DNA of 64,000 nucleotides from Ferrovibrio sp. (GTDB taxonomy: Bacteria > Pseudomonadota > Alphaproteobacteria > Ferrovibrionales > Ferrovibrionaceae), in NCBI RefSeq assembly GCF_002796975.1, contig NZ_PEKV01000003.1, positions 14,870 to 78,869 of the forward strand, in the 5' to 3' direction. Shown one piece after another: positions 22,682 to 28,963 of the stretch (position 1 is the stretch's first letter; every line of letters begins with the position of its first letter). The notes under the pieces were generated by a model. The model was not told where the DNA came from. It was given only the letters and a program-made list of their open reading frames with translations, and did no database searches. The translations under genes and the position numbers were made by a program.

Positions 22682-23317
22682 TTACTGCGCTGCCCAGACG
22701 ATGCGAGCGATCCAGGCGATGTCCTGCACGTCGAAGCCGCGCTCAGGGTAAGCAGGATTGAAGGAGGCGAGTTCGATGCGGGTGAGCGTGCGGCGCGACA
22801 GCAGTTTGCACATCACTTCGCCCTGCGTGGTCTTGGCGATCACGCGGTCGCCGCGGCGCACGCTGGCGGCTGGCGATACGATCACCACATCGCCGTCGCG
22901 ATAGACCGGCAGCATGCTGTCGCCGCTGATCTCCAACGCATAGGCCTGGCTGTCGCCGATCTCGGGGAAGGGCACCTTCTCCCAGCCTTCGCCGGTCGGG
23001 AAACCGGCATCGTCGAAGAAGCCGTCCTTACCGGCCTGGGCCAGGCCGATCAGCGGAATGCGCTGCGTGCTGCGCGGCACGCCGCCGCTTTCGCTCAGCA
23101 GGTCCATGAATTCCGGCACGCTGGCGCCGGTCGCCTCGATCACCTTGGCGATCGATTCCGTCGACGGCCAGCGCTGCTTGCCGTCGCGCGAAATGCGTTT
23201 CGACCGATTGAAGGTCGTTGGATCGAGACCGGCTTTGCGGGCGAGACCGGAGGCGGTGAGGTCGTAGCGTTCGGCAAGACCGTCGAGGGCAGCCCAGATG
23301 GCGCGATGTGTCAGCAT
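22682..23317 (-). CDS. HTH + S24 peptidase (CI/LexA-like) repressor
   Basis: N-terminal HTH (SGLARKAGLDPTTFN), Ala-Gly cleavage site in IPLIGLAQAG, catalytic GDSM Ser and downstream Lys (VMCK). Confidence 0.9.
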   Translation of the reverse strand: MLTHRAIWAALDGLAERYDLTASGLARKAGLDPTTFNRSKRISRDGKQRWPSTESIAKVIEATGASVPEFMDLLSESGGVPRSTQRIPLIGLAQAGKDGFFDDAGFPTGEGWEKVPFPEIGDSQAYALEISGDSMLPVYRDGDVVIVSPAASVRRGDRVIAKTTQGEVMCKLLSRRTLTRIELASFNPAYPERGFDVQDIAWIARIVWAAQ

Positions 23318-23385
23318 GGGAAGATTGTCTTGCAAAACGGGTCATTTGCATACAGGAATATTATCTGATTTTTGCTTTGACATGA

Positions 23386-23400
23386 GAACATAATGGGAAT
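23386..23400 (+). promoter_or_regulatory. Putative alphaproteobacterial LexA (SOS) box overlapping a TTGACA promoter
   Basis: GAAC-N7-GAAT (one mismatch to GAAC-N7-GAAC), 3 nt after TTGACA at 23377-23382. Confidence 0.55.
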
Positions 23401-23466
23401 TACATCTTGTCGTTAGGCGCGAAAGTCGCCTCTGTTCTGCTCGCCTCGGGTCTGGATGTGAAACAA

Positions 23467-23937
23467 ATGAGCGAAAATCCAGCGAAACCCGGACTTCAAT
23501 CGCCAGCTTCGGCTGCAGTCGCTCCCGCCAGACCGGAACGGGCCGTCGTGGTCTTTGCCGAAGACATCCGGCTGCCGAAGCTGCGCCGGCTCAAGCCGGG
23601 CTTCCGGCACTGCTATGCCTATCTGGCCATGCCGGGCGGCTGGGTCGGCATCGATCCTCTCTCACATATGATTGAGATAAAAGGGTTTTATGACTGGCCG
23701 GTGGATGCCGATCTGGCGGCGCATCTGCGCAGCCTGGGACACTGCGCCTTGACCGTTCCGGTTCTGGCGGCGCCCAAACGCCTGGCGCCGCCGCTGCCGT
23801 TTTCCTGTGTCGAGGTGGTCAAGCGTCTGATCGGCCTGCAGAGCTGGCGGATCAGAACACAATGGGAACTATTTCTGCATTTACGGAAAATATCCCTTGA
23901 TTATGGATTTGTTTTGTTCTATATCTGGTTTTCATAG
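23467..23937 (+). CDS. Hypothetical protein, possibly a permuted papain-like (His-before-Cys) fold
   Basis: KPGFRHCYAY ... PFSCVEVVKRLIG; first gene of the phage-like unit. Confidence 0.65.
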   Translation: MSENPAKPGLQSPASAAVAPARPERAVVVFAEDIRLPKLRRLKPGFRHCYAYLAMPGGWVGIDPLSHMIEIKGFYDWPVDADLAAHLRSLGHCALTVPVLAAPKRLAPPLPFSCVEVVKRLIGLQSWRIRTQWELFLHLRKISLDYGFVLFYIWFS

Positions 23938-23952
23938 GAACAAATAGCAAAC
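23938..23952 (+). promoter_or_regulatory. Second putative LexA box, upstream of the portal operon
   Basis: GAAC-N7-AAAC within an AT-rich stretch that also contains GTTCTATATCTGGTTT (23916). Confidence 0.5.
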
Positions 23953-23986
23953 ACTTCTGGTCGATCCGCGAAAGGACTTTGCCGCC

Positions 23987-24229
23987 ATGGGTGGGATTTT
24001 CAGCTCTCCGTCGCCGCCGCCACCGCCTCCCGCGCCGCTGCCGCCCCCGGCCGAGCCGCCCGAGAGTGCCGCCGAACTGGCCGAGAAGGCGGCCCGCGAC
24101 CGTCGTCGTCGCGCCCAGGGTGAAACCATCGCCACCTCGTGGCGCGGCGTGAACGACACCGACACCGAAACGCTGGGCGGCGGCAGTTCGACCGCCAGCC
24201 GCAGCGGCAAACGCCTGCTGGGCGAATGA
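23987..24229 (+). CDS. Small Pro-rich hypothetical protein preceding the portal gene
   Basis: MGGIFSSPSPPPPPP ... RRRRAQGETIATSWRGV ... KRLLGE; resembles the small gene that precedes T7-type portals. Confidence 0.7.
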   Translation: MGGIFSSPSPPPPPPAPLPPPAEPPESAAELAEKAARDRRRRAQGETIATSWRGVNDTDTETLGGGSSTASRSGKRLLGE

Positions 24230-24255
24230 GAGCGCAGATGTCTGGCAAGACCCGC

Positions 24256-24753
24256 ATGACAACGACACAGGAAGAGTCGCGGAAAGATTCCGCAACTGAT
24301 CCTCTGCATCCTGACGCGCTGCGTCGCCGCTACGACCGGCTGCGCAGCCAGCGCGGCAGCTGGGAAGCGCTGTGGCAGGACTGCTACGACTATTCGCTGC
24401 CGGCGCGCCGTCCGAATGCCGGATCAGGCAGCACTACAGGTCGTGTCGCTGAGCGCCTGTTCGATGCGACGGCGGCCGATGCGGCCGAGCAGCTGGCGGC
24501 CACCCTGCTGGCGCAGCTGACGCCGCCGTGGTCGCGCTGGTTTGCCTTCCAGCCCGGTCGCGACGTGCCGGAAGACCAGCGCGGCGCCATGGCGAGCGAA
24601 CTCGATCGAACTGCTGAACTGCTGCAGGCGCAGTTCGACCGCAGTAATCTCGCCGTCGATCTACGCGCTTGCCCCGCGCCGCGAGATCGGCGAGCAGGCA
24701 CCGTTCCTTGCCGATTTCCATCGTCTCGAACTGCCGGTGCTGGATCAGCATGA
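24256..24753 (+). pseudogene. Truncated T7-type head-to-tail connector (portal) protein
   Basis: SWEALWQDCYDY, RLFDATAADAAEQLAATLLAQLTPPWSRWF, QFDRSNLAVD. Portal-like sequence ends at about 24660, then an out-of-frame tail runs to the stop at 24753. Confidence 0.8.
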
Positions 24754-25558
24754 CGAAAGCCGCTGGCCGGAACGTTTTCCGCGCGAAAGACTCGACAGCA
24801 TCCGGCGCCGCACCGGCGCGGCGCGGTTCGCTGCGCAGATGCTGCTGCAGCCGGTCTCCACGGAAGACGCGCGCCTCGATCCCGACCGCATTCCGCTTTA
24901 CGGCGGCGAGCTGGAGGTCGAACACCTGAGCGGCGACCGCATGCTGCTCAGCATCGAGGGCAAACGCATGGTCTCGGCCAGCTGCTGGTGGGATCCCGCC
25001 TTCGGCATGCCGCGCCATGGCGACGGCAGCGTGATCGCTGCGGTCTTTGGCGACACCGATGGTGGCTACTGGCTGCATCGCATCCAGTGGCTGGAGCAGC
25101 AGCCCGGCAGCAGCCTGGATGCCGCCAGCCAGCTTTGCGCGCAGGCCGCCGGCTTCGTGAAGGCATTGCATCTGCCCTCCGTGCGGCTGGAAACCAACGG
25201 CCTTGGCCGTTTCCTGCCCGGCCTGCTGCGCCGCGCGCTCAGTGCTGCCGACTGCGGCGCCGGCGTGGTCGAGCAGACCAGCCGCCAGTCGAAAACCGCC
25301 CGCATCCTGCAGGCTTTCGATGTGGTGCTGGCCGCCGGTGCATTGCAGGTGCATCGCAGCGTCGACGACACGCCCTTCTTTGCCGAGATGCGCGAATGGC
25401 GCGCCGACGGACGCAGCCGTGACGATGGGCTGGATGCGGTCTCGGGCTGCCTGCTGGCTGAGCCGGTGCGCTTCGGCCTGCTGCCGGCGCGGCCTGCGAT
25501 GCCCGACTGGCGCGGCGGTGCCGGGCAGCATGTGGCGAAAACGGAATTCGAAGTGTGA
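24656..25558 (+). pseudogene. 5'-truncated phage terminase large subunit (end of ATPase domain plus RNase H-like nuclease domain)
   Basis: SIYA, SRWPERFP, FAAQMLLQP, WWDPAFG..GDGSV, LETNGLG, K.ARI, RDDGLDAVSG. No start codon or Walker A region upstream in this frame. Confidence 0.8.
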
Positions 25559-25570
25559 AGGGAGGCCGTC

Positions 25571-25867
25571 ATGATCGGACAATTTGCCATCGATCTGATG
25601 TGGTGGCTCAGCATGGTGGAACTGCCGGCGCTCGGCGGCCTGTTCTGGCTGATCCAGCACCAGCGCGACCGCCAGGAGCAGAATCTGCAGCAGATGCAGG
25701 CCGAACACCGCGCCGCCATCGGCGCGACGCGTGCTGCGCTTTCAGACTTTAAATTGGACGTCGCGCAGCGCTACGCCTCGATCGCGCATCTGAAGGATGT
25801 CGAGACGCGGCTGACCGAACATCTGCTGCGCATCGAGGCCAAACTCGGCCAGCCGGTCCGTCTGTAG
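25571..25867 (+). CDS. Membrane-anchored coiled-coil protein of the lysis region
   Basis: N-terminal hydrophobic segment (WWLSMVELPALGGLFWLI) followed by a coiled coil; GGAGG RBS. Confidence 0.7.
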   Translation: MIGQFAIDLMWWLSMVELPALGGLFWLIQHQRDRQEQNLQQMQAEHRAAIGATRAALSDFKLDVAQRYASIAHLKDVETRLTEHLLRIEAKLGQPVRL

Positions 25868-25878
25868 GGGAGGGTGAC

Positions 25879-26334
25879 ATGCGTATCGACAGACTGCCAG
25901 CCGATCCGGCCGCCCGTGCGGTGGCTTGCGGAGACCATGCCTTCGCCCTGGATGTGCTGGCGCGTACGCTGTGGGGCGAGGCGCGCGGCGAAGGCCGCGA
26001 CGGCATGCGCGGTGTGGCGAATGTCGTGCTCAACCGCGCCGCCCGTCCCGGCTGGTGGGGCCGCAGCGTGGCGGAGGTGTGTTTAAAGCCCTGGCAGTTT
26101 TCCTGCTGGCTGGAGAGCGATCCCAATCGCGCGAAGCTGCTCGGCGTGGACGGCCGCGACCGTGCATTTGCCACGGCGCTGTCGATCTCGGTCGATGCGC
26201 TGGCCGGCATCCTGCCGGACTACACCTTCGGCGCCACGCATTACCACGCGCTCGACTGCGAAGTGGCATGGAGCAAAGGCCGCACGCCCTGCGCGGTAAT
26301 CGGCCGGCATGCCTTTTACAACGACATAGACTGA
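25879..26334 (+). CDS. Cell wall hydrolase (SleB/Hydrolase_2 family), putative endolysin
   Basis: LARTLWGEARGEG..GM..VA.VVLNR, KPWQFSCW, GATHYHA, IGRHAFY. Confidence 0.88.
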   Translation: MRIDRLPADPAARAVACGDHAFALDVLARTLWGEARGEGRDGMRGVANVVLNRAARPGWWGRSVAEVCLKPWQFSCWLESDPNRAKLLGVDGRDRAFATALSISVDALAGILPDYTFGATHYHALDCEVAWSKGRTPCAVIGRHAFYNDID

Positions 26335-26343
26335 GAGACGACA

Positions 26344-26748
26344 ATGCTCGACAAACTGCTGACCGCACAGATCGCCACGCCGATAGAGGCCATCGGCAAT
26401 GTCTTCGACAAGCTGTTCACGTCCGATGACGAACGCGCCCAGGCCGAGGCCGTGCTGGAAAAACTGCGCCAGCATCCGGCCGAACTGCAGGTCGAGCTGA
26501 ACAAGATCGAGGCAGCGCATCACTCGGTCTTTGTCGCCGGCTGGCGGCCTGCCGTGGGCTGGATCTGCGCCGCAGCTGTCGGCTGGGCCTATCTCGGCCA
26601 TCCGCTGTTCCTGTGGGCGGCGGCGCTCTGGTCGCCCGGCCTGCAGCCGCCTGCCATCCATACCGACAGCCTTTTCGAACTGGTGCTGGCCATGCTCGGG
26701 ATGGCGGGCCTGCGCAGTTTCGAGAAGGCGGCGGGGAAGCGGCGGTGA
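26344..26748 (+). CDS. 3TM holin (GTA-type holin family)
   Basis: IEAAHHSVFVAGWRPAVGWIC ... LVLAMLGMAGLRSFEK. Confidence 0.85.
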   Translation: MLDKLLTAQIATPIEAIGNVFDKLFTSDDERAQAEAVLEKLRQHPAELQVELNKIEAAHHSVFVAGWRPAVGWICAAAVGWAYLGHPLFLWAAALWSPGLQPPAIHTDSLFELVLAMLGMAGLRSFEKAAGKRR

Positions 26749-26759
26749 GAAGCCTCCGT

Positions 26760-26825
26760 CGTCATGCCGGGCTTGACCCGGCATCCCATTTTTTAATGGG
26801 CCTCCGGCTCAAGGCCGGGGTGACG
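26760..26825. repeat. REP-like palindromic dyad (CCCATTT/AATGGG subtype)
   Basis: cgtcatgccgggcttgacccggcatcccattttttaatgggcctccggctcaaggccggggtgacg. Confidence 0.85.
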
Positions 26826-26854
26826 GACTCCGCGCCTTCTGCTATCTCCAGCCC

Positions 26855-27199
26855 ATGACCGTGATCTACCGCATCGTCTCGGCAGCCGACTGGCAGGCGG
26901 CACAGGCGGCCGGCACCTTCGCCGGCACCGCGCATGACCTGCGCGACGGCTTCATCCATTTCTCGACAGCGAAACAGGCGGCCGAAACCGCGGCGAAGCA
27001 CTATGCCGGCAAGACCGACCTGCTGCTGCTCTATGTGCGCGACACCGATGTGGAAGCCCCGTTAAAGTGGGAAAGGTCGCGCAACGACGATCTCTTCCCG
27101 CATCTCTACGGCCAGCTTCCCGTGTCTGCCGTGTATCGCATCGATCCGCTGCCGCTGGGCGCCGACGGCCGGCATGTCTTCCCGGCGGATATGCCATGA
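26855..27199 (+). CDS. DUF952 family protein
   Basis: IYRI, DGFIHFST, LKWE.SR...LFPHLYG.L. Confidence 0.9.
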   Translation: MTVIYRIVSAADWQAAQAAGTFAGTAHDLRDGFIHFSTAKQAAETAAKHYAGKTDLLLLYVRDTDVEAPLKWERSRNDDLFPHLYGQLPVSAVYRIDPLPLGADGRHVFPADMP

Positions 27200-27834
27200 G
27201 CGGCCCGGGAAATGTTCTGGTTCGCGACCCATACTGGGGTCAGCCGCTGATCTCCTACACCGTCGTGCAGATGCTGGAGCCGGCGGCGCGCGACACCTGC
27301 GTGGAGAGTCTGCGGCAGGTGTCCGCGATTGCCGGCGGCGCCGAACATCTGCTGATCGCGCCGGCCGAGACGTTTCATCTCTCGCTCTATGCCATCGCGC
27401 CGGTGCGCTCGGATTTCGACAAGGATGCCTGGTGGCAGGTGCATGGCCAACAGGCGCTGACCGTGTTCCGCCGCTGGTGCGGCACGCAGCCGGCAGCCGT
27501 GCTGAAATTCCGCGAGCTGCGCGTCACGTCTACTGCGGTGATCGCGGTGGCCGAGCCGCATGAGGCGGTCTGGAGCCTGCGCCGCCTGCTGCGCGCCGAA
27601 GTGCCGCAGCCGCCGGGTGGCACGCCGAATTACGACATGATCCACATGACCCTGGCGCGTTACGCGCAGCCTGACAGACTGCCAGCGGACTTCGCCGCCC
27701 GCGTTGCGGCCTTGCCGCTCACGCTCGATGTGCGGCTGTTCGAACCCACGCTGGTGCGTGAAACCGCCTATCCGCTGCTCGGCGGCAAACCGGTCGAGAC
27801 GCATGTGCTGAAAACTCCGGAGACGGCGGCATGA
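27196..27834 (+). CDS. 2H phosphoesterase (LigT-like) superfamily protein
   Basis: Two HxS/T motifs (PAETFHLSL, MIHMTLAR) about 90 aa apart; ATGA overlaps on both ends. Confidence 0.65.
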   Translation: MSGPGNVLVRDPYWGQPLISYTVVQMLEPAARDTCVESLRQVSAIAGGAEHLLIAPAETFHLSLYAIAPVRSDFDKDAWWQVHGQQALTVFRRWCGTQPAAVLKFRELRVTSTAVIAVAEPHEAVWSLRRLLRAEVPQPPGGTPNYDMIHMTLARYAQPDRLPADFAARVAALPLTLDVRLFEPTLVRETAYPLLGGKPVETHVLKTPETAA

Positions 27835-28889
27835 GCCTCTATCGCAACCTGATCTTTCCGCTGGTGCGCAACATCGATGCCGAAACCGCGCATCGCGCCA
27901 CGCTGAGGCTGCTGAGCTGTGCGCCGCTGCCGCCGCTGCTGCCGGACGATCCGGTGCTGGGGACGACGCTGTTCGGCAAACCCCTGCCCAATCCGGTCGG
28001 GCTGGCCGCCGGCTTCGACAAGAATGCCGAAGTGCCCGATGCCATGCTGCGGCTCGGTTTCGGCTTTGTCGAGGTGGGCGGCATCACGCCGCAGCCGCAG
28101 ACCGGTAATCCGCGTCCGCGTGTGTTCCGCCTGCCCGAAGACCGCGCGGTGATCAACCGCATGGGTTTCAACAACGACGGGCTGGAGGTGACGGCGTCGC
28201 GGCTGCAGGCGCGCAAGGGCCAAGGAAAGCAACTGGGCGGTGTTGTCGCCGCCAATCTCGGTGCGAACAAGGACAGCGCGGATCGTCCGGGCGATTATGC
28301 GATCTCCTATGAGCGGCTGGCGCCGCTGGTCGATTTCGCCGTGGTGAACGTGTCGTCGCCCAATACGCCGGGCCTGCGCAACCTGCAGGGCCGCGAGGAG
28401 CTGGCGGCATTGCTGGCGCGGCTGCAGCCGCTGCATGAAAAACTGAAGACGCCGCTGCTGGTCAAAATTGCCCCCGACCTTGCAGAAGAAGATATCCGCG
28501 ACGTCGCCGACCTGGCGCTGCAATTCCGGCTGGATGGTATCATTGCCACCAACACCACGGTGACGCGGCCGGAGACTTTGCGGAGCGGCAATCGCGGCGA
28601 GACCGGCGGGCTCTCGGGCGCACCGCTGTTCGAGCTTTCAACAATGGTGCTGAAGCAGCTCTACGGCTTCACCGGCGGCAAGGTGCCGCTGATCGGGGTC
28701 GGCGGCATTGCTTCGGGCGCGCAGGCCTATGCCAAGATCCGCGCCGGTGCCTCGGCCGTGCAGCTGTATTCGGCGCTGGTCTACGAAGGCCCCGGCCTGG
28801 TCGGCCGCATCAAGCGCGAACTGGCCACGCTGCTGAAGCGCGACGGGTTCCGCAGCGTGGCGGACGCGGTGGGCGCAGACGTTAAGTAA
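27831..28889 (+). CDS. pyrD: Quinone-dependent dihydroorotate dehydrogenase (class 2)
   Basis: NPVGLAAGFDKN, GNPRPRVFRL, INRMGFNN, NVSSPNTPGLR, VKIAPD, GGLSG.PL. Confidence 0.98.
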   Translation: MSLYRNLIFPLVRNIDAETAHRATLRLLSCAPLPPLLPDDPVLGTTLFGKPLPNPVGLAAGFDKNAEVPDAMLRLGFGFVEVGGITPQPQTGNPRPRVFRLPEDRAVINRMGFNNDGLEVTASRLQARKGQGKQLGGVVAANLGANKDSADRPGDYAISYERLAPLVDFAVVNVSSPNTPGLRNLQGREELAALLARLQPLHEKLKTPLLVKIAPDLAEEDIRDVADLALQFRLDGIIATNTTVTRPETLRSGNRGETGGLSGAPLFELSTMVLKQLYGFTGGKVPLIGVGGIASGAQAYAKIRAGASAVQLYSALVYEGPGLVGRIKRELATLLKRDGFRSVADAVGADVK

Positions 28890-28896
28890 GACAAAT

Positions 28897-28963
28897 CGTC
28901 ATACGTGGGCTTGACCCGCGTATCCCATTTAATGGGATGCCCGGATCAAGCCCGGGCATGACA
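28897..28963. repeat. REP-like palindromic dyad (CCCATTT/AATGGG subtype)
   Basis: cgtcatacgtgggcttgacccgcgtatcccatttaatgggatgcccggatcaagcccgggcatgaca. Confidence 0.85.

Follow-up and report, generated by a model that had tools for sequence, protein, structure and literature searches.

The window analyzed here, a stretch of 64,000 nucleotides on contig NZ_PEKV01000003.1 of a Ferrovibrio sp. genome (G000), contains a short cluster of phage-type genes between dinG on the left and the genes for a DUF952 protein and PyrD on the right. The cluster is composed of genes for an S24 repressor, the first protein of a rightward operon, an 80-amino-acid (aa) protein, a 98-aa protein, a cell-wall hydrolase, and a holin, and it is interrupted in the middle by a scar, which joins the 5' part of a gene for a T7-type portal to the 3' part of a gene for the large subunit of a terminase (TerL). 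All six genes around the scar are full length. The main reference for the comparison is Ferrovibrio terrae (G012), for which a complete genome of the same genus is available. A sequence-only reading of the window had named the regulator, the 5' genes, and the lysis genes as the survivors of a deletion, and this was the case.

The junction between portal and TerL and the genes removed by it

The open reading frame (ORF) in frame 1 matches the portal family profile PF12236 (Head-tail_con) at positions 3 to 121 of 489 with an E value of 5.5e-28 (98.1 bits compared to a cut-off of 27) and also phrog_332 in a search of the PHROGs profiles. Frame 2 from 24656 onward matches positions 483 to 717 of the 760 positions of the terminase large subunit profile phrog_38 (E 5.9e-28), which is the C-terminal third. 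The same reading aligns ungapped over 300 aa and with 87% identity with residues 244 to 543 of the 543-aa TerL of G012, starting with SIYALAP, and this part of the G012 protein contains PF17289 (Terminase_6C). Both the Walker A (RDAGKST) and the Walker B (LCDDVE) motif of the G012 TerL are located within residues 1 to 243, which are deleted here and have no counterpart in the window or in the rest of the genome. The TerL remnant possesses the RNase H-like nuclease domain and lacks the N-terminal ATPase with these motifs. Both fragments could be assigned by the profile searches, which confirms, as does the alignment with the G012 TerL, the out-of-frame fusion of a T7-type portal N terminus to the 3' part of the TerL gene that had been read from the letters alone.

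A full-length portal of this type comprises about 500 to 550 residues and forms a dodecameric ring. The remnant contains ~144 residues, continues past the junction for 31 codons out of frame up to a stop at 24753, and is a pseudogene fragment. Its start is more likely at 24226 than at 24256 because the ATG at 24226 forms an ATGA overlap with the stop codon of the 80-aa gene in front of it, an arrangement also present in G012. An in-frame ATG at 24839, proposed as a start for a nuclease-only TerL, is present and opens a reading frame of 239 aa, although with no visible ribosome-binding site and no sign of use.

The blastn alignment and an ungapped three-way display of the window with both parental sites of G012 placed the end of the portal homology at 24659 and the start of the TerL homology at 24656; the blastn blocks overlap at 24656 to 24662. 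Common to both parental sites is TCGA or an imperfect 7-mer, TCGA[G/T]CT (24656 to 24662), in which 6 of 7 positions match. The parental sites read GCCGT[C/T]GAGCTG in the portal gene and CTACTCGATCTACG in the TerL gene, and the fused product GCCGTCGATCTACG; therefore, the crossover was inside TCGA, within the imperfect 7-mer. The suspected microhomology exists with a length of 4 to 7 nt. Of the bases GTCGA (24655 to 24659) that had been regarded as shared, TCGA was retained, but the leading G is one base too many.

The window and G012 align in two collinear blocks, window positions 22682 to 24662 and 24656 to 28962, which are separated in G012 by 14,082 bp. Flanks and gene order are the same in both genomes, with dinG and the S24 repressor on the left and the hydrolase, holin, DUF952, and pyrD on the right, as expected from the synteny proposed for relatives. 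The proposed loss of the TerL ATPase, of the scaffold, capsid, and tail genes, and of the remaining portal sequence in a single deletion agrees with the content of the 14,082 bp, which holds exactly these at the same site. At the portal end, the insert contains the remainder of the portal (the full-length G012 orthologue matches positions 12 to 541 of the 560 positions of phrog_332), a Bbp19-like small ORF, a T7 scaffold (PF05396), the capsid (PF19821, phrog_3437), and a 90-aa gene. These are followed by the tail genes for tubular A (phrog_394), tubular B (phrog_376), and a gp14-like internal protein (PF24072), by a cargo region encoding a collagen-like fiber, a 395-aa unknown protein, a radical-SAM protein, and a 400-aa unknown protein, and at the right end by a fiber gene (T7 tail-fiber N terminus PF03906 plus a collar domain), a 106-aa gene in the position of a small terminase, and the ATPase half of TerL. 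The window copy lost 12 to 13 whole genes in addition to three quarters of the portal and the TerL ATPase.

The ratio of nonsynonymous to synonymous substitutions (dN/dS) compared to G012 was 0.15 for the portal and the TerL remnant, similar to that of intact comparators (0.13 and 0.17). The ratio on the G000 branch of TerL was about 0.14, calculated by our own arithmetic from three pairwise values, with a branch dS of about 0.37. Neither fragment contains a stop or a frameshift. Because of this and of the dN/dS values, which are not relaxed, the deletion should be young relative to the G000 branch. The closest relatives carry other lesions: the contig of G018 ends after a 79-aa gene with neither fragment in the assembly, and G002 has a deletion from capsid to holin. 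This indicates that the scar arose on the G000 lineage, and the deletion is recent, as had been supposed.

Table 1. Features of the scarred locus (positions in the window)
Feature	Position	Strand	Remarks
Helix-turn-helix and peptidase S24 (LexA/CI-like) repressor	22682..23335	-	PF00717 E 9e-23, phrog_4; intact; transcribed away from the element
First gene of the rightward operon, "hyp161" family, about 156 aa	23467..23937	+	Alternative start TTG 23407; kept beside the repressor in nearly all related loci
80-aa proline-rich gene, phrog_831 (E 4e-6)	23987..24229	+	Stop overlaps portal start (ATGA); homologue in the same place in G012, 77% identical
Portal remnant, first ~144 codons	24226..24659	+	Equals G012 residues 1-148 of 551; 80% identical to G012 residues 6-148; dN/dS 0.15
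Deletion junction TCGA	24656..24659	+	Common to portal and TerL sides
TerL remnant, C-terminal 300 residues, RNase H-like nuclease half	24656..25558	+	Equals G012 residues 244-543; dN/dS 0.15
98-aa gene, phrog_29007 (E 2e-26)	25571..25867	+	Opens the retained lysis-end block; intact; 91% identical to G012 homologue
Cell-wall hydrolase, SleB-type endolysin	25879..26334	+	PF07486 E 1e-17, phrog_938; intact; length equals G012 version
Holin with three transmembrane segments, GTA_holin_3TM family	26344..26748	+	PF11351 E 5e-15, phrog_3427 E 1e-29; intact
Terminator-like hairpin and T-run	26764..26784	+	8-bp stem, 6 GC pairs, tail CCCATTTTTT; ends the operon ahead of DUF952

The translated repressor contains an Ala-Gly site (QAGK), the serine of GDSM, and the lysine of AKT. 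It was found in all Ferrovibrio genomes in which the left flank could be read (22 including G012). It was full length in all Ferrovibrio examined, with dN/dS values of 0.03 to 0.33 even between genomes without structural and lysis genes, and it may also serve the host independently of the element. In the alignment of the "hyp161" first gene, G45, R47, H48, C49, C114, V115, E116, R120, and T131 are invariant. Its confident AlphaFold2 model (predicted local distance difference test score of 86) and its sequence yielded no match in Pfam, the PDB sequences, or the PDB folds; judging from the pattern of His and Cys residues, it may be a thiol enzyme. Between the scar and the holin, no terminator-like site comparable to the hairpin behind the holin gene was present.

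The parent element in Ferrovibrio and related bacteria

The dinG-proximal 20 kb of 20 further Ferrovibrio genomes, and subsequently four additional pieces, were compared. Wherever the assembly permits this check, dinG and either TerL or portal are located on one contig at a distance of 2 to 17 kb. All genomes with a readable site contain the S24 repressor and the first gene beside dinG, followed by the full cluster or a remnant of it and then by DUF952 and pyrD. The intact cluster comprises about 18 kb with ~20 ORFs. No integrase, excisionase, replication, or polymerase gene was found among these ~20 ORFs of the G012 element in a PHROGs and Pfam scan, and no att-like (attachment site) flanking repeats and no tRNA were present at the element. 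This agrees with the sequence-only reading, which had noted no integrase, replication gene, or att site and a host-like codon style; the GC content and the GC content at third codon positions (GC3) of the element equal those of the flanking host genes.

A host tree calculated from pyrD, DUF952, and the N-terminal part of dinG was compared to an element tree from portal and scaffold DNA. Both contain the same three clades with the same internal groupings, and each deleted copy is placed beside the copies from relatives of its host. Between intact copies, dN/dS was 0.06 to 0.27 for the portal, 0.04 to 0.21 for the capsid, 0.10 to 0.44 for tubular B, and 0.15 to 0.41 for TerL. The dS values of the element genes resemble those of dinG and pyrD, and the divergences span dS values of 0.3 to 1.3. 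Both checks that had been suggested, dN/dS and congruence with the host tree, indicate vertical inheritance under purifying selection at one site in all readable Ferrovibrio genomes instead of a recent prophage. The features of an ordinary temperate prophage (an integrase, att repeats, sporadic presence at variable sites) were not found, and two of those generally ascribed to a gene transfer agent (GTA) were: a structural cluster devoid of its own replication, integration, and excision genes, and an orthologous locus that co-diverges with the host under purifying selection. By definition, the particles of a GTA also contain largely random host DNA, in pieces too short for the whole cluster, which they hand over to recipient cells.

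About ten of the Ferrovibrio genomes (G012, G004, G021, G006, G005, G020, G015, G013, G017, and G007) have kept the structural genes. Two of these, G017 and G007, retain portal through TerL, and tblastn detected neither a hydrolase nor a holin in the interval from the 98-aa gene to DUF952, so that they appear to possess the particle genes without the usual lysis pair; the radical-SAM block is also missing in both. The cargo of the Ferrovibrio element, ~5 kb between the gp14-like gene and the second fiber (in G012, L027:5005-10400), consists of the collagen-like fiber, the two unknown proteins, and the radical-SAM protein. The distance from portal to TerL is 13.8 kb in Ferrovibrio compared to 7 to 10 kb in other genera.

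Relatives of the portal were found on more than 480 bacterial contigs. Almost all of the 80 best of them (54 to 83% identity) are encoded behind an S24 repressor gene and the first gene and ahead of the scaffold gene, after which capsid, the 90-aa gene, and tubular A and B come next in most cases. In Tagaea, Telmatospirillum, Marivibrio, Algihabitans, and others, dinG is at most 10 kb away from the element. The portal tree contains separate, well-supported clades for Ferrovibrio, Azospirillaceae, Magnetospirillum, Tagaea, Defluviicoccus, and Aestuariispiraceae. Among 50,697 phage records, no portal relative with more than 35% identity was found except one 5-kb fragment, and the nearest phage portals, from Pelagibacter podophages, are 30 to 35% identical. 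Two Ferrovibrio genomes, G014 and G019, harbor podophage prophages at other sites, which contain an integrase-like ORF, TerL upstream of portal, internal proteins of 745 and 1479 aa, and, where a replication gene would be expected, a 742-aa ORF, which is assigned by position only. Their portals are 31 to 38% identical to that of the resident element.

No description of a T7-like GTA was found in full-text literature searches. Particles with ~10 kb of DNA from Azospirillum have been attributed in the literature to genes of the type of the Rhodobacter capsulatus GTA (RcGTA). The RcGTA marker PF13547 (GTA_TIM) is absent from the genome of the window, with a positive Caulobacter control; the element is consequently no relative of RcGTA. 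Its structural genes are all of the T7 type, which also separates it from the RcGTA-like Rhodogtaviriformidae.

Recurrent deletions and their endpoints

Comparable deletions were found in many Ferrovibrio genomes. Positions preceded by "+" are nucleotides from the gene start, others are residues. In the window copy, the deletion extends from portal +439 to TerL +729 and is out of frame. Five other genomes have a left end close by, all with an in-frame junction: G001 (portal ~+443 to holin +67), G003 and G022 (both portal ~+440 to holin ~+140), G019 (portal ~+445 to TerL residue 305), and G011 (portal ~+422 to TerL residue 428). G022 (contig C14) carries in addition ~34.7 kb of other DNA, inserted within the remnant behind the first gene and ahead of the portal fragment. 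A second group starts in the capsid gene, again in frame, with the identical junction from capsid +46 to holin +150 in G002, G010, and G016, and capsid +51 to hydrolase +72 in G014. Two out-of-frame deletions have other left ends, portal ~+90 (to holin ~+148) in G008 and portal ~+730 (to the fiber gene) in G023, and the lesions of G009 and G018 are larger or unreadable. Among the Logan assemblies L149, L150, and L151 (of SRR31327552, SRR31386429, and SRR31386449), the first two contain an intact element. L151 is 99.87% identical yet lacks a block of ~8.2 kb from capsid +48 to the 3' end of the radical-SAM gene, with an in-frame junction at GACG (L151:8370). This is a presence/absence polymorphism of particle genes within a species.

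In the host tree, the deleted genomes are interleaved with intact sisters, and the flanks of the deletions follow the host clade, which indicates that the deletions were independent. With G001 and G022 counted as one event and G019 and G011 as another, at least 11 independent deletions occurred in about 25 Ferrovibrio lineages, which is a new result. At least four of the left ends are within about 10 nt at portal ~+440 and five within 6 nt at capsid ~+48. In a uniform model, 4 of 11 ends within 12 nt have a probability of ~1e-6, and this was seen twice. The recurrence of endpoints within ~10 nt across lineages is new and unusual, and no mechanism for it was found.

Several candidates were considered and rejected. 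A Chi-like octamer, CAGTTCGA, is located 6 to 25 nt 5' of both hot spots; it is not over-represented (305 and 347 observed compared to 324 and 361 expected), shows no strand skew (0.46), and is absent from the portals of clade C. The folding energies of 60-nt windows at the breakpoints are ordinary (3rd to 46th percentile) and do not indicate hairpins. Spreading of one deleted allele between species was ruled out because in G002, G010, and G016, which have an identical junction from capsid to holin, the immediately adjacent flanks follow the host clades. A 15-mer common to portal and holin, GTCGAGCTG[C/A]AC[C/A]AG, accounts for the junctions of G003 and G022 only, and most intact copies do not contain it. 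Selection for in-frame fusions seemed to be indicated by 8 of 11 in-frame junctions (p = 0.009 against an expectation of 1/3). In the GC3-rich element, however, 41 to 60% of the microhomologies of 3 to 8 nt are in phase, leading by our own arithmetic to a p value of about 0.06, so that the excess should mostly be the result of codon-phase composition.

Origin of the scar and comparison with known systems

The scar is best explained by one deletion of ~14.1 kb in a chromosomally fixed T7-like gene cluster located between dinG and DUF952/pyrD, of which the parent was a domesticated, GTA-like element, a reading to which we assign a probability of about 0.85. The deletion would have joined portal codon ~144 to TerL codon 244 out of frame at the microhomology of 4 to 7 nt, probably by RecA-independent slippage or microhomology-mediated end joining, in an event that seems to be recent on the time scale of this lineage. 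With 12 to 13 genes and the terminase ATPase gone and only a quarter of the portal left, the window copy is dead and can neither assemble nor fill particles. The genes that stayed intact, from the S24 repressor, first gene, and 80-aa gene to the block of the 98-aa gene, hydrolase, and holin, would represent one transcription unit, and de-repression may now lead to transcription of a lysis cassette in the absence of particles. As judged from the gene content and its comparison, the genomic pattern of the parent is that of a domesticated GTA-like element. The GTA-like reading, also favored from the sequence alone, is supported by the fixed site, the absence of integrase, replication genes, att sites, and tRNA, the matching trees, the low dN/dS values, and the host-specific clades across the Rhodospirillales.

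Evaluation of this reading needs to consider the possibility that the assembler had joined two separate places and the strain in truth contains the whole element. The junction is known from the assembled contig alone, and the chimeric ORFs occur in one public assembly only. With regard to the 97%-complete source assembly, such a mis-join is extremely improbable: the missing parts of portal and TerL, the capsid, and all other proteins of the deleted 12 to 13 genes of the G012 element are on none of its 45 contigs; the junction is in the middle of a 191-kb contig, and the overlap of only 4 to 7 nt is far below the k-mer of an assembler. Moreover, comparable deletions occurred in at least 11 relatives, complete genomes among them. 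A genuine deletion may also have hit an ordinary T7-like temperate phage that integrated beside dinG and has been eroding neutrally, with a conservation that only reflects its age. A lost or damaged element in over half of the Ferrovibrio species, an S24 CI-like repressor as is typical of temperate phages, and a capsid gene shared with real prophages agree with such a history. It is nevertheless very unlikely, because neutral erosion over such a span should have ruined all copies, while intact copies hold about 20 open genes with dN/dS values of about 0.04 to 0.2 over dS values of 0.3 to 1.3, like host genes. The lack of integrase, excisionase, replication gene, att site, and tRNA and the same layout in host-specific clades over many Rhodospirillales genera also argue against it.

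Alternatively, the remnant itself may be functional, with the lysis genes, portal N-terminal fragment, first gene, and repressor maintained as an SOS-triggered lysis or anti-phage module, and breakpoints may recur due to selection for products such as a portal N-terminal fragment. The portal N-terminal ~145 to 150 residues were kept in at least four independent deletions, mostly as in-frame fusions, with dN/dS values of 0.10 to 0.23 between sister genomes that are both deleted; these sister deletions may, however, have occurred separately and not long ago, and the low values could equally result from this, and the in-frame excess (8 of 11) is largely expected from codon phase. Selection would predict breakpoints anywhere past a domain edge and not within 10 nt, and the fusion in the window is out of frame. 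Strong purifying selection on the repressor where all else is lost and intact lysis genes with no terminator upstream of them in the window would fit a functional remnant, but many other remnants contain truncated holins. Taken together, this explanation is unlikely, albeit less so than a neutrally decaying prophage.

Some observations weigh against a deletion in a domesticated GTA-like element, too. No other assembly on public record carries the identical chimeric ORFs. The capsids of the prophages in G014 and G019 (G014:C19:~53000, G014:C2:~172500, G019:C1:~3760500) are 59 to 86% identical to the resident capsid, which suggests an exchange of capsid genes between the fixed element and circulating phages; as its capsid gene reaches 70 to 86% identity to those of unrelated integrase-bearing prophages in these two genomes, the element seems to swap genes with real phages even now. 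With at least 11 deletions in about 25 lineages, it may be dispensable and perhaps a very old prophage that is slowly dying. Particle production and DNA transfer by the intact relatives would have to be deduced from the genes alone. A further-reaching interpretation would mean that the intact relatives are working, DNA-damage-induced GTAs of T7/podovirus ancestry that originated independently of RcGTA and are fixed across the Rhodospirillales, and that the deletion hot spots did not arise by chance but are footprints of the activity of the element or of a site-preferring nuclease. This is tentative and clearly below even odds.

The scar alone is ordinary gene decay, and its value lies in what it exposes. 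It led to an independent demonstration at the level of a genus that a particle cluster of the T7 type is passed on in the manner of a chromosomal locus and maintained by selection, and the idea of a podovirus-derived GTA becomes directly testable in cultured Ferrovibrio terrae. The independent deletions, including strains of one species that differ in the block from capsid to radical-SAM, form a natural knock-out series that can be used to determine the cost or the contribution of the element. The recurring endpoints could report a site-specific break or a strongly favored template switch.

Compared to known systems, the element resembles the GTAs of the RcGTA type (Rhodobacter capsulatus, Caulobacter, Dinoroseobacter) in being a chromosomally fixed cluster of head, tail, packaging, and lysis genes without those for integration or replication, which co-diverges with alphaproteobacterial hosts under purifying selection, is often lost or truncated in individual lineages, and contains a holin of the GTA_holin_3TM family. 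In contrast to the HK97-type siphovirus set of RcGTA, it encodes a T7-type portal, scaffold, tubular A and B, gp14, and fiber N terminus, it is adjacent to an S24 LexA/CI-like repressor instead of being under CtrA/GafA control, and it is known from its genes alone. With the T7-like and HTVC010P-type podophages (Autographiviridae, Pelagibacter), it shares the T7-specific Pfam families and the order portal, scaffold, capsid, tubular A, tubular B, internal protein, fiber, small and large terminase, and lysis genes. Unlike these phages with their 35 to 40 kb, the element has a size of ~18 kb, is inherited with the chromosome, and lacks RNA and DNA polymerases, a primase/helicase, an integrase, and large ejection proteins of the gp15/gp16 type. 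The window copy is similar to the cryptic prophages of E. coli K-12, being the product of an internal deletion that spared regulatory and lysis genes and truncated two structural genes; its parent, however, is not sporadic but an orthologous locus across the genus and the order, in which the same two breakpoints recur across lineages.

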